DNA of 64,000 nucleotides. Source: Octopus sinensis. Its lineage: Eukaryota. The notes below the pieces were generated by a model. That model was not told where the DNA came from. It did no database searches and was given only the letters and a program-made list of their open reading frames with translations. The position numbers and the translations under genes were made by a program. The stretch is from contig NC_043018.1 of assembly GCF_006345805.1 (NCBI RefSeq), forward strand, positions 9,982,001-10,046,000, read 5' to 3'. Positions 2,388-39,280 of this stretch are shown here, piece after piece. The stretch's first letter is position 1; each line of letters opens with the position of its first letter.

Positions 2388-2630
2388 TGTACACAGCTAA
2401 TATTTTTTTAATAGAATCACACACACTCTGCTACATTCTTCACTTCGCAGCGAACATGACAATTCAACCATATTGTTAAGAAAATGGTAGGCTCCACATG
2501 GCTGTTCGACCTGCTAGAAAATGCAGCCATATCTCCCTCATCACCCATACATTTTAGAAAATAAGGAAGGACATATTGAAATAATCAGTCCTAGATTTAG
2601 AAACAAAATTAAAAATGTGAATCTTTTATG

Positions 2631-3065
2631 TGGTTATTCCACTTGCTAGAAAAAGCAGTCAGACCTCCATCATGTCAAACTATATCATCTTTGAAAAAGA
2701 AGGTCATTTTGAATTAATCAATTGTTGATATCAAAATAAAATGGAAAAAGGGGAATCATCTATATGGTTATTCCACTTGCTAGAAAAAGCAGTCAGACCT
2801 CCATCATGTCAAACTATATCATCTTTGAAAAAGAAGGTCATTTTGAATTAATCAATTGTTGATATCAAAATAAAATGGAAAAAGGGGAATCATCTATATG
2901 GTTATTCCACTTGCTAGAAAAAGCAGTCAGACCTCCATCATGTCAAACTATATCATCTTTGAAAAAGAAGGTCATTTTGAATTAATCAATTGTTGATATC
3001 AAAATAAAATGGAAAAAGGGGAATCATCTATATGGTTATTCCACTTGCTAGAAAAAGCAGCCAGA
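2631..3065 (+). repeat. 134-bp tandem repeat, ~3.2 copies, derived from a dispersed repeat
   Basis: tggttattccacttgctagaaaaagcag recurs at 2631, 2765, 2899, 3033. Confidence 0.95.
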
Positions 3066-6559: not shown

Positions 6560-6759
6560 AGAGTTAAACACATAAATGTGAAACAAGGTGGAAAAAGAGT
6601 ACTCAAATACCAGTGGTAGAGTAATATGCTTTATAAAGCAGCAGAAAATTCAACAAAACCTGTTACTCTGAGTTTCCGTTGCCGTTCATCAGACAGTTTT
6701 TCTAGCAAAAATGTCCGATGAACTCAGGTTTTGTTGAATTTTCTGCTGCTTTAAATAAA

Positions 6760-6760
<1 letters not shown>
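6558..6760 (-). mobile_element. (TA)n-inserted PLE-type terminal cassette with inverted arms and a hammerhead motif
   Basis: Flanked by (TA)n on both sides; arms 6629-6662 and 6725-6760 are reverse complements. Confidence 0.7.
6660..6696 (-). ncRNA. Minimal type I hammerhead ribozyme
   Basis: ctgt-CTGATGA-a-cg-gcaa-cg-GAAA-ctc-a-gag-TA-acag: stem I ctgt/acag, GUA cleavage triplet, near-palindromic stem III. Confidence 0.7.
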
Positions 6761-6850
<90 letters not shown>

Positions 6851-10280: not shown

Positions 10281-10790
10281 TTCAATGAGAAAGAAAAGAC
10301 CCACAGAATTCTCTTGTTAGGGATTAATACTGAAGTGATCTCATTATGTGATGTTAATTAATGTTAATTAATGCTAATTAATGTCAATGGTTTAAAGACC
10401 CTTTAATCCAGCCCTAATAATGTTTATAATAGGATTAGGATAAAAGTTGAAAACACTTTAAGCTTCATTGAAATCATTGAGTCTTATTGGTTTTTCTTGT
10501 GTGCCATATGTTAGGGACAAGAGTGCAAACAGGGAAGAATTATACTTGAGACTACTCGATGTATATGTGTATATATGTATGTATATGTGTGCATATGTGT
10601 GTGTGTGTGCATCCGTGCGTGCGTGTGTCTATGTGTATACACACACACATACACATATATACATGCAGTTCAACGCATAGAAAATGAGCATTAAATGATT
10701 GATGATGATGATGATGATTATGTATGTATGAATGTATGTATGTATGTGTATATATATGCATATGTATATATACATACATATATATATATA

Positions 10791-10982
10791 GTTAATCCAA
10801 ACAAGAAAGCACAAAAAAACACAACAACGCGAGGATGTGGAACAAATATAGTATTATTGGACGCTCAGGAAAGAAGGGAAGAAGGAGGGTTTAATGTTTC
10901 AAGCGGAGCTCTTCGTCGGAAACATAGGAGAAGGAAAGATCCAGAGAAGGGAAGACAGAGGAAAAAAAATCGCCAACGGTAC
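10791..10982 (-). mobile_element. (TA)n-inserted cassette with a degenerate hammerhead motif
   Basis: Between (TA)n runs; minus strand 10923-10889 reads gttt-CCGACGA-agagctccgctt-GAAA-catt-aaac. Confidence 0.55.
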
Positions 10983-11310
10983 ATATATATATATATATAT
11001 ATGTATAAGTATATACATTCATAGATGTTTACATATTAAGATGTCAGTAAAAAATTTAGATTCAAATGAATATAGTAACTTCAGTTGAGGCACCAGAATT
11101 TAGTACGGTATTATCCATACAATTTCAAAATAGGTGATTAAAACCAAAATAAGGAACAAGGACCTCTGGATATCCTTGTTGCTTATTTTGATATGTAAGA
11201 TGTCTGTAAGTGTGGCCCTAAAAATAAACCCTAAAAAATAAAAAAAGATAACAGATGCCAATATGGAAATTGATTACTGTATGTATATATATTTTATATA
11301 TATATATAAT

Positions 11311-11359
<49 letters not shown>

Positions 11360-11378
11360 TATATTATTATATAGAAGG

Positions 11379-11429
11379 AGCTTCTACAGGACTAGAACTG
11401 TTTCATTCAAGAGAAATCTTCAGGAAGCT
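11379..11429 (-). ncRNA. Type I hammerhead ribozyme (left arm)
   Basis: Exact reverse complement of 11576-11626. Confidence 0.75.
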
Positions 11430-11575
11430 AGTTAACAGAATTGTATTGGCATTTATACATTTAGGCAGGTTTAAAGGGGTGTTGGTGGGGGACTTTTTGG
11501 GTCCCAAAATGTCCCCCACCAACACCCCTTTAAACCTGCCTAAATGTATAAATGCCAATACAATTCTTGTTAACT

Positions 11576-11626
11576 AGCTTCCTGAAGATTTCTCTTGAAT
11601 GAAACAGTTCTAGTCCTGTAGAAGCT
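11576..11626 (+). ncRNA. Type I hammerhead ribozyme (right arm)
   Basis: agcttc-CTGAAGA-t-ttc-tctt-gaa-t-GAAA-cag-ttctagtc-ctg-TA-gaagct: 6-bp stem I, conserved core, 4-bp stem III, predicted cleavage after GUA (A11620). Confidence 0.8.
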
Positions 11627-12191
11627 CCTTCTATATAATAAATTAATTTTACTCTGCTATGTATTGAGTACCTTATTTACTGTGGTTAACCCCGAATCAA
11701 CCCGGGACCTACATATATATATACATATATATGTATGTATATATATATATGTATAGATATATATGTGTAGATATGTGTATATATATATATATGTTAGTGT
11801 GTACATATACACACACACCTGTACGAATACAAGTATATATATAGGGCTATGTGAGTGTGTATGTGTGGGTGTTATTGTTTGTGTGTATGTATGTGCATGT
11901 GTGTGTGATGGTTTGTAAGTGCGTTTTAACGTACGGCATTTGTTGGCATGTACCATATGTTCAAGTTAATACAGCAGCAGCAGCAGTGGAAATGCACACG
12001 AAATAAAAGATCACAACAGAAACACATCCATGCACATGAACATACTCAGCAACATATAAACCAACACATACACATCAACACACACACACACATATATATA
12101 TTTACATATCTTTATATGTATATTGAAATTAATTAGCATTAATTGACATTAATTAAACCTTATATATATATATACACACACGCACACACTC

Positions 12192-12229
<38 letters not shown>

Positions 12230-13049
12230 TACAATGGGCTTCTTTCAGTTTCTGTCTAAATCCACTCACAAAGCTTCCGTTGTCCCAAGGCTATAGTAGA
12301 AAACACTTGCCCAAGGTGTCACATATAAACCAACACACACACATATATATTTACATATCTTTTTATATGTATATTGAAATTAATTAGCATTAATTAACAT
12401 TAATTAAACCTTATATATACACACATACACACACACACATATATATATATAAGTAAATAAATGGAGATGAATGAAACATATGTTGAAAGTAAAAGAATTT
12501 TAATAACATCTTCGTTCAACTCCATTTATGTACTTATACTACACAAATTATTGCACATTAACCCAGAGTTTCTACCTTTGAATAGGTCGCTTCATCCGTG
12601 TTACTTGCGTGAATTTTGCTGCCCTGGTAACCGTTTATTGAATTTTCCATGTTAACATGACTCAAGGAAGATCTTTATTCTATCTTTATCTTGCTCCAAC
12701 TTAGTGGTTAGGAGCGTTGGCCTCATGATTATAACATTGAGGTTTCAATTCCTGGATCGGGTTCTGCATTGTGTTCTTAAACAAGGCACTTCATTTCATC
12801 TTGCTCCAATCCACTCAACTGCCAAAAAGAGTAATCCTGCGACACTAGTCCATTGCAGGATATATATTCCCATCCTGGGGCGAATATACACACCACAGAA
12901 ACCAGGAAACGATCCCTATCAGTTGAAATGACCTGGGAATGAGCTTTATCTTTTTCTTCTTCTTCTTCTGATTAAACTGACCAAATACCGATATACCATA
13001 ACATAGCTAGCACTCATAACATATTCATAATAGATATCATAAAGTACAT

Positions 13050-17934: not shown

Positions 17935-19632
17935 TGATTGATGCTGGTGCTGGTCCCATGTCAAAAGCACTGGTGATGGTGCCACATAAAATGCACCCAG
18001 TACCCTTTGTGGAGTGGTTGGCATTAGGAAAGTAATGACAAAGCACCGAGATATCTGGCCCTTTGCTGTTCTCAAAAAGACCTGTCCACCACGGCCGGAT
18101 TGATGCTGGTGCTGGTCATGTCAAAAGCACTGGTGATGGTGCCACATAAAATGCAACCCAGTACCCTTTGTGGAGTGGTTGGCATTAGGAAGTAAGACAA
18201 AGCACCGAGATATCTGGCCCTTTGCTGTTCTCAAAAAGACCTGTCCACCACGGCCGATTGATGCTGGTGCTGGTCCCATGTCAAAAGCACTGGTGATGGT
18301 GCCACATAAAATGCACCCAGTACCCTTTGTGGAGTGGTTGGCATTAGGAAAGTACTGACAAAGCACCGAGATATCTGGCCCTTTGCTGTTCTCAAAAAGA
18401 CCTGTCCACCACGGCCGGATTGATGCTGGTGCTGGTCCCATGTCAAAAGCACTGGTGATGGTGCCACATAAAATGCACCAGTACCCTTTTGGAGTGGTTG
18501 GCATTAGGAAGTAATGACAAAGCACCGAGATATCTGGCCCTTTGCTGTTCTCAAAAAGACCTGTCCACCACGGCCGGATTGATGCTGGTGCTGGTCCCAT
18601 GTCAAAAGCACTGTGATGGTGCCACAAAAATGCACCCAGTACCCTTTGTGAGTGGTTGGCATTAGGAAAGTAATGACAAAGCACCGAGATATCTGGCCCT
18701 TGTGCTGTTCTCAAAAAGACCTGTCCACCACGGCCGGATTGATGCTGGTGCTGGTCCCATGTCAAAAGCACTGGTGATGGTGCCACATAAAATGCACCCA
18801 GTACCCTTTGGGAGTGTGGTCATTAGGAAAGTAATGACAAAGCACCGAGATATCTGGCCTTTGCTGTTCTCAAAAAGACCTGTCCACACGCCGGATTGAT
18901 GCTGGTGCTGGTCCCATGTCAAAAGCACTGGTGATGGAGCCACATAAAATGCACCCAGTACCCTTTGTGGAGTGGTTGGCATTAGGAAAGTAATGACAAA
19001 GCACCGAGATATCTGGCCCTTTGCTGTTCTCAAAAAGACCTGTCCACCACGGCCGGATTGATGCTGGTGCTGGTCCCATGTCAAAAGCACTGGTGATGGT
19101 GCCACATAAAATGCACCCAGTACCCTTTGTGGAGTGGTTGGCATTAGGAAAGTAATGACAAAGCACCGAGATATCTGGCCCTTTGCTGTTCTCAAAAAGA
19201 CCTGTCCACCACGGCCGGATTGATGCTGGTGCTGGTCCCATGTCAAAAGCACTGGTGATGGTGCCACATAAAATGCACCCAGTACCCTTTGTGGAGTGGT
19301 TGGCATTAGGAAAGTAATGACAAAGCACCGAGATATCTGGCCCTTTGCTGTTCTCAAAAAGACCTGTCCACCACGGCCGGATTGATGCTGGTGCTGGTCC
19401 CATGTCAAAAGCACTGGTGATGGTGCCACATAAAATGCACCCAGTACCCTTTGTGGAGTGGTTGGCATTAGGAATTAATGACAAAGCACCGAGATATCTG
19501 GCCCTTTGCTGTTCTCAAAAAGACCTGTCCACCACGGCCGGATTGATGCTGGTGCTGGTCCCATGTCAAAAGCACTGGTGATGGTGCCACATAAAACGCA
19601 TCCAGTAGACTTTATGGAGTGGTTGGTGTTAG
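17935..19632 (+). repeat. ~162-bp satellite, 11 unit starts, built from an RTE LINE ORF end plus 3'UTR
   Basis: gatgctggtgctggtc at ~17940, 18102, 18260, 18422, 18581, 18741, 18898, 19060, 19222, 19384, 19545. Confidence 0.95.
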
Positions 19633-19765
19633 GAAGGACATCCAGCCATAGAACCCAAGCCAGAACAGAGAATGGAACCTGGTGTGACCTCTGGCCTTAT
19701 CAGCTTTGGTCAAACTGTCCAACATATGCCAGCATGGAAAACGGATATTAAATGATGATGATGAA
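19545..19765 (+). mobile_element. RTE LINE 3'UTR and (TGA)n tail terminating the satellite
   Basis: ttaggaaggacatccagccatagaa...ccagcatggaaaacggatattaaatgatgatgatg. Confidence 0.8.
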
Positions 19766-39072: not shown

Positions 39073-39075
<3 letters not shown>

Positions 39076-39280
39076 GGTCCCGGGTTGAGTCGGGGTTAAC
39101 CACAGTAAATAAGGTACTCAATACATAGCAGAGTAAATTAATTTATTTTATAGAAGGAGCTTCTACAGGACTAGAACTGTTTCATTCAAATGAAATCATC
39201 AGGAAGCTTGCTGGCAAGCTTCCTGATGATTTCATTTGAATGAAACAGTTCTAGTCCTGTAGAAGCTCCTTCTATAAAAT
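39073..39280. mobile_element. Second fold-back PLE-type mini-element in (TA)n
   Basis: Reverse orientation of the 11365 family; perfect palindrome 39145-39280 with a 2-nt loop (39212-39213). Confidence 0.85.
39217..39267 (+). ncRNA. Type I hammerhead ribozyme (mirror copy on the minus strand at 39158-39208)
   Basis: agcttc-CTGATGA-t-ttc-attt-gaa-t-GAAA-cag-ttctagtc-ctg-TA-gaagct; canonical CUGAUGA core, GUA cleavage after A39261. Confidence 0.82.

Follow-up and report, generated by a model that had tools for sequence, protein, structure and literature searches.

A near-perfect palindrome of 278 bp (positions 11364-11641) carries one and the same ribozyme on each of its two strands, and it raises the question of whether this is a small fold-back element that multiplies by itself or the trace left by a larger element that inserted here. 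We approached this question by comparing the locus with its relatives elsewhere in the genome; the window, as we use the word below, is the whole 64-kb stretch of DNA in which the locus lies.

The palindrome and its two ribozymes

Aligning the reverse complement of 11364-11501 with 11503-11641 gives 137 identities, one mismatch and one one-base indel around a single-base centre (T11502), and the repeat scan places the palindrome between (TA)n arrays at 11280-11373 and 11713-11792; the alignment and the scan thus confirm an earlier note on this DNA, which had reported a near-perfect palindrome with a 1-nt centre at 11502 inside (TA)n. The left array overlaps the AT-rich end of the left arm (the left side of the target proper is 11280-11363), and the first four bases of the right-hand (AT)n, ATAT, also fit the continuation of the element described below. 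The direct arm (11503-11712, plus strand) extends beyond the palindrome, and the inverted arm (11364-11501, minus strand) is a sub-segment of it. Both arms end at the same element position at the junction base 11502; this position is 73 nt upstream of where the ribozyme begins. An open reading frame listing (not a eukaryotic gene finder) returned only low-complexity frames around the locus.

The same 51-nt type I hammerhead stands in both arms, at 11576-11626 on the plus strand and at 11379-11429 on the minus strand. It consists of a 6-bp stem I (AGCUUC/GAAGCU), the box CUGAAGA, a U10.1·U11.1 pair, stem II (UUC/GAA, loop UCUU), GAAA, stem III (ACAG/CUGU, with an 8-nt loop) and a GUA triplet, and cleavage is predicted after A11620 and at the mirror position 11385. 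The core (CUGANGA, GAAA and NUH) and the three stems are thus all present, exactly as the earlier note had described for each strand. A descriptor scan of the 64-kb window returned five hits: the two focal ribozymes, two at 39.1-39.3 kb and one at about 6.7 kb. The covariance-model check that had been proposed came out negative, with no hammerhead family among the 73 Rfam matches (E ≤ 1) to the region 10500-12500, where the miRNA-type matches are owed to the hairpin and to simple repeats. Computed folding gives the 51-mer no advantage over its shuffles (z 0.17), with a probability of 0.018 for the active fold and of 0.05-0.07 for the stem II pairs.

The ribozyme is nevertheless conserved in sequence across copies: none of its 38 core, stem and U·U sites carries a variant shared by two or more of 31 copies, compared with 12 of the 23 sites in the upstream spacer (N7 and three of the four loop II sites also vary across these 31 copies), which is the conservation of core nucleotides that the earlier note had made a condition of its reading. 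That note had also flagged the U·U at pair 10.1-11.1. The pair is U·U as stated, where G-C is usual in hammerheads; by our own count in the supplement to PMC8557442, U·U (U after the first core box, U before GAAA) occurs in 14 of 25 published Hydra families and is the commonest state in the clade. Among 78 related metagenome loci, 56 have a hammerhead, and the 52 distinct ones include 23 with U·U and 18 with G-C. U10.1-U11.1 is recorded in natural hammerheads, and also as the mispair that is tolerated best (PMC3088659); U·U belongs to the traits of the clade and is known as a variant in nature. Five copies carry a loop III variant in which a self-complementary CUAG becomes ACUAGU, which would favour a dimeric ribozyme.

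Because both arms reach position -73, each keeps what reads as a TATA box and a ribozyme, and the two sets stand back to back and point outward. The predicted core promoter of the direct arm is a TATAAA at 11547-11552 (plus strand); its counterpart in the inverted arm lies at 11452-11457 (minus strand), separated from the ribozyme by a spacer one base short of the 23 nt of the family. An RNA read through the locus from outside would form a 138-bp hairpin (-243 kcal/mol in the computed fold) and hide both ribozymes. The earlier idea that transcription from either direction could yield long double-stranded RNA would hold only for such read-through; transcripts from the predicted in-arm promoters would hold one arm each and hence no hairpin. 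Small interfering RNAs from Penelope inverted repeats have been reported (PMC3681739), and hundreds of perfect hairpins in one genome could feed small-RNA pathways. The locus retains the TATA box, the ribozyme and, in the right arm, both start sites, as far as the sequence tells, and could thus give rise to outward transcripts; copies made from these would be promoter-less.

The parent element and its relatives

A search of the genome (2.72 Gb) with the right arm, 11503-11712, found at least 39 further copies at 375 bits among 778 candidates. The copies share a 3' end, GGGACCTAC with (AT)n after it, and extend to different distances in the 5' direction. Genome-wide exact matches number 3748 for the 5' half of the ribozyme and 2678 for the tail (controls, 0). 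We found the parent by a stepwise 5' walk through genome copies, in three further steps beyond the right arm, which crossed about 2.5-3.5 kb of low-complexity sequence before arriving at an open reading frame of about 710 codons. In tandem copies the sequence of the window runs unbroken into this frame, whose ATG lies at +184 from A11576, and in 15 of 20 loci fetched with a query from the 5' end of the frame the pLTR and tail join it directly; the arm therefore represents a pLTR plus its tail (11644-11712, about 70 nt). The distance from ribozyme to ribozyme, measured in six tandem copies, is 4.8-5.8 kb.

The frame contains RWR, DKT, YRDD, CxCx5C, VY..YIG, CxxC and CxH motifs (for example PSDKTKN, CNCPDKTTC, CDLC and CMH, with a single C between VY and YIG), and CCHH is absent from it; in one copy YRDD and VY..YIG, identified by eye, share a single natural frame of 652 amino acids. 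It is matched by 800 database proteins at E ≤ 1e-30, the best 120 of which have 38-54% identity and the same motifs, including DK[TS] in 118 and RW[KR] in 112; RWK, where the element has RWR, is found in 84. There was no Pfam hit above the cut-off (one fell below it), a profile search of PDB returned nothing, and none of the 10 copies checked has an intact frame, the copies showing frequent indels in the assembly. The element thus combines the features of EN+ Penelope-like elements, namely a reverse transcriptase (RT) together with a GIY-YIG at the C-terminus in one frame, a pLTR in partial tandem and a hammerhead within the pLTR, and it also has inverted 5'-truncated copies and an optional tail, both described for Penelope-like elements (PMC8557442). 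Its insertions lie in (TA)n: ATAT or TATA comes after the tail in 92 of 97 cases. A target of this kind masks any target-site duplication.

Each arm of the palindrome is accordingly read as a pLTR, the 3' end of a Penelope-like element that is young, high in copy number and marked by Hydra-clade motifs, membership in the Hydra clade being assigned on these motifs. The connection to Penelope-like elements and their inverted pLTRs made in the earlier note is borne out by the arm sequence leading into an RT/GIY-YIG frame, and a follow-up it had proposed gave thousands of copies, (TA)n flanks and linkage to that frame. The element carries (TA)/(TG)-type low-complexity DNA over 2.5-3.5 kb between the frame and the pLTR (loci L091-L132), and thereby disperses microsatellite-like sequence, in which its own target may be included.

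The Hydra clade as described in PMC8557442 has a C-terminal GIY-YIG, DKT in place of DKG, a CxCx5C linker, CxxC/CxH, no CCHH and a (TA)n target, and its elements are generally shorter than 3 kb (a tendency rather than a criterion). The element found here shares the frame motifs, (TA)n and a hammerhead near the 3' end with members such as Penelope-13_HM, Hydra-1_Ajap and Hydra-1_Obim. It differs from the clade as described in its unit of 4.8-5.8 kb with a long low-complexity 3' region, in RWR for RWK, in a tail of about 70 nt rather than 30-40 nt and in a loop III of 8 nt rather than 1-3 nt, and it is a different family from Hydra-1_Obim, with another ribozyme and another N-terminus as judged by eye. 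In Penelope-13_HM, an inverted 5'-truncated copy likewise places a ribozyme on both strands (PMC8557442, Craig et al. 2021). We are dealing with a new family within a known clade, of which the focal locus is an ordinary insertion. Because the family is young and numbers thousands of copies, its junctions can show the integration mechanism at base resolution, and it is this family-wide junction pattern, rather than a locus ordinary for its element class, that is worth following.

A wall of 5' ends at the edge of the ribozyme

We examined the 5' ends of an unselected run of 97 tailed copies from contig C1, after removal of three duplicated loci. In 42 of the 97 the arm ends within 11572-11591 (0.026 per nt per copy), 18 of these ends lying at 11575-11576, and the next 127 nt (11445-11571) hold the ends of 5 of the 39 arms that pass this wall (0.001 per nt per copy; Fisher p 5e-5, with no length correction). 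Short inverted arms end at the same wall in 37 of 48 cases, and in DNA contigs of public sequencing runs all 15 of the joints listed (of 44) link 11405-11429 to 11576-11596. Genome-wide, among the 3290 ribozymes of T-type subfamilies that reach A11576, the base at -1 is T in 2031, A in 690 and G or C in 569. The templated base is thus absent in 1259 of them, and 1786 match on to -8, compared with the 2031 at -1 (the pattern used for -8 is slightly shorter at its 3' end and misses some spacer variants). Our literature search, which covered journals outside subscription, found no paper on such a 5' wall at the ribozyme or on the focal family.

A TATA box typically stands about 30 nt before the start of transcription, and the TATAAA of the direct arm begins 29 nt upstream of A11576, with a 23-nt spacer of variable sequence in all 33 regex-matched copies. 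The wall at the edge of the ribozyme and the fixed spacing of the TATA box together point to A11576, the first base of the ribozyme, as the likely beginning of the element's RNA, and the short ribozyme-sized inserts would then be run-off ('strong-stop') cDNAs. In 8 of 41 related families a TATA-like box occurs 34-46 nt ahead of the core, where 1.3 would be expected (for a window chosen post hoc), and the other 33 have none in that interval. A pLTR promoter, partial tandems, an inverted pLTR and an optional tail are shared with the Penelope elements of D. virilis and rotifers, and a putative TATA is given for a rotifer pLTR (PMC2377424, PMC3846280, PMC3681739). In D. virilis the promoter is an internal one that has no TATA, and an intron precedes the ribozyme, whereas the promoter predicted here is upstream of the start and LTR-like.

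The pile-up at 11576 might have a cause other than a transcription start, such as annealing at AGCT, release of the RT at stem I or a 3' splice site, and we regard this as unlikely. The bases 11576-11579 are the self-complementary AGCT. No other type of junction is as common as the fold centred on AGCT (7 of 31 pairs), and of the first 100 matches preceded by A, 74 were judged by eye to be symmetric folds on it; microhomology at AGCT therefore helps joining and inflates the peak at 11576. Splicing finds a parallel in D. virilis, where the intron ends at helix I (PMC4209133), and in 5 of 41 related families, which have a pyrimidine tract and YAG directly before stem I. Annealing does not explain, however, why the longer palindrome GTTAAC (11569-11574) and a second AGCT (11623-11626) are not hot spots, nor why arms that adjoin (TA)n, or unrelated element parts, likewise break off at 11575-11583; splicing is opposed by the absence of any fixed upstream sequence (an exon, or a spliced or trans-spliced leader) in 90 junctions, and the TATA box at -29 fits a start site. 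We thus retain a start at A11576 as the likely reading.

Two further observations concern the RNA that would serve as template. A G before A11576 is explained by the partner arm in 45 of 72 cases, leaving 27 G to 12 C (27 G to 9 C after three internal variants are dropped), and among 11 ends elsewhere, 4 have a G before them as judged by eye. In L1, an additional G at -1 has been read as a copied cap (PMC9341517); here the extra G is present, and as a mark of a cap it is weak. Ends at the predicted cut site are not above background (a single tailed arm out of 97 ends at 11621, and two of the 48 inverted arms end at 11624-11625), and with so few copies starting there the main template is likely to be uncut RNA, which in turn suggests a ribozyme that is slow or assisted by protein. 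Copies with the start of the frame behave differently from short inserts, 11 of 15 extending upstream past +1 and none beginning at +1, which needs either a jump to the downstream pLTR or a longer read-through RNA; no mechanism for promoter regeneration in Penelope was known to PMC2377424. Several junctions (L304/L305, L317/L318, L326/L327 and L370) contain short repeated re-copies of the 5' end of the ribozyme, as if the RT had re-engaged the end of its template several times.

Head-to-head insertions and a possible route of replication

The arrangement at the focal locus is the rule in its family. An inverted arm is present in 55 of 67 tail-anchored loci for which 6 kb of upstream sequence was available, and in 53 of these 55 it is tailless, as at the focal locus (of all 74 inverted arms seen, 71 lack the tail). 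On contig C1, the first 100 matches to the ribozyme represent 68 loci and comprise 31 head-to-head pairs and no tail-to-tail pair. The arms have two fixed 3' ends, the tail end at 11712 and a short end at about 11643 (32 of 68 short arms at the mode), both of which overlap the target by a few TA bases; the tail is the segment between them, and the focal inverted arm stops at the short end (equivalent to about 11641-11643). At their 5' ends, the arms of sister insertions are cut short independently of one another, at anything from about 30 nt to several kb. Among 53 pairs, 15 have an inverted arm that extends beyond the tailed arm in the 5' direction (the reverse holds in 7, 30 end within 6 nt of each other and 1 is unclear), an outcome that the folding back of a tailed cDNA cannot produce and from which we infer two priming events. 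We read the focal feature as a head-to-head insertion into (TA)n, present once in the genome, that joins two 5'-truncated 3' ends of the element and probably arose from two reverse-transcription events, primed at the two ends of a single break.

A single cDNA of the same parent element could instead have snapped back, primed its own copying and joined (TA)n again through its AT-rich short end, a route argued for palindromes of rotifer Penelope (PMC3846280). This agrees with the focal arms, which share a stop base and a 1-nt centre with the left arm contained in the right, and with the 30 of 53 pairs whose arms end within 6 nt of each other, but most of these matched pairs lie at the common wall, where equal ends are expected anyway. 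A 1-nt loop cannot form, and the 15 pairs with the longer inverted arm run against snap-back, which we hold to be improbable for this locus.

The proposal of the earlier note, a non-autonomous fold-back element or retrozyme that amplifies itself, we consider very improbable. There is no open reading frame at the locus, and an AGCT-centred fold-back of about 210 bp does recur in hundreds of copies genome-wide, but these folds carry variants of several subfamilies and no TATA box. The focal junction itself occurs at one site in the genome in an exact-match search (control, 0), which makes it a one-off insertion and not a family: the whole unit is not repeated, as it would be in a MITE-like element, and arm lengths in the family are continuous up to kilobases. 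Animal non-LTR retrozymes are likewise non-coding, derive from Penelope-like pLTRs and carry type I hammerheads, but as described in bioRxiv 10.64898/2026.07.22.740005 they are tandem repeats with a ribozyme in each unit; the locus has one inverted pair and no tandem array of ribozyme units. An assembly or read fold-back artefact is hardly credible: the junction is bridged by none of the listed contig pieces from four contig sets of public sequencing runs, and the assembly shows frequent indels in copies, but the flanks are not mirrored, the arms end at two family-typical ends and differ at two places, and fold-back joints of the same family are present in DNA contigs of the public runs.

Returning to two priming events at one break, we can sketch a sequence of steps that would produce the family's junctions. 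The element's mRNA would start at A11576 and run through the tail, the frame and the long low-complexity 3' region into the downstream pLTR, and the RT/GIY-YIG protein would cut both (TA)n strands. At one end of the break cDNA synthesis would be primed at the tail site and at the other end at the short site, with a TA homology of a few bases assisting both primings. Where start sites near the 5' end of the RNA are used, cDNA would run off at +1 and yield the abundant ribozyme-sized inserts; where downstream sites are used, truncation would be random, as at the focal locus (-73). The two cDNA ends would then be joined by microhomology or with a few extra bases.

More broadly, and tentatively, with confidence somewhat short of even, we suggest that Hydra-type Penelope elements replicate in a manner resembling retroviruses. 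They would have an upstream TATA promoter and a +1 at the first base of the hammerhead, and the RT would act near the 5' end of the RNA to make a strong-stop cDNA of about 70 or 140 nt, which would either be integrated or jump by way of the ribozyme sequence to the downstream pLTR and so regenerate the promoter. The two ends of a break would use different start sites, so that head-to-head insertions would be the normal outcome, and the ribozyme would serve as the mark of a terminal redundancy, an R region, rather than mainly as a cutter of tandem precursors. From the data one would expect RNAs capped at A11576, one start site at each of the two ends of the break and little cutting at A11620. 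Both the origin of pLTRs and inverted copies and the role of the ribozyme are described as open questions in PMC2377424 and PMC8557442.

The nearest biochemical parallel is Poseidon PAc of Anolis, for which cutting and extension of both strands were obtained in vitro and two internal start sites define the tail (Frangieh et al. 2024, PMC11167929). Shared with that element are an AT-rich target, a ribozyme near the start of the frame and uncut RNA as the main substrate. Poseidon PAc belongs to another clade, its frame starts inside the ribozyme, and a pile-up of 5' ends at the ribozyme edge or an asymmetric use of sites does not figure in what we have drawn on from that report (PMC11167929).

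The window holds two further insertions of related layout. A second fold-back at 39073-39280, of a sister subfamily (CUGAUGA, loop II CAUU), also lies in (TA)n; its tail is on the minus-strand arm, its junction falls just 5' of stem I with a short spacer, and near-identical folds are many genome-wide. A (TA)n mini-insertion at about 6620-6770 (minus strand) carries a hammerhead that is unrelated (stem I CUGU/ACAG), an inverted arm of 28 nt beginning beside the predicted cut site, and a tail, and is likely to represent another Penelope-like family with the same layout. The window also contains two tandem arrays, one of 162-bp units at 17936-19635 (10.6 copies) and one of 134-bp units at 2611-3065 (3.4 copies).
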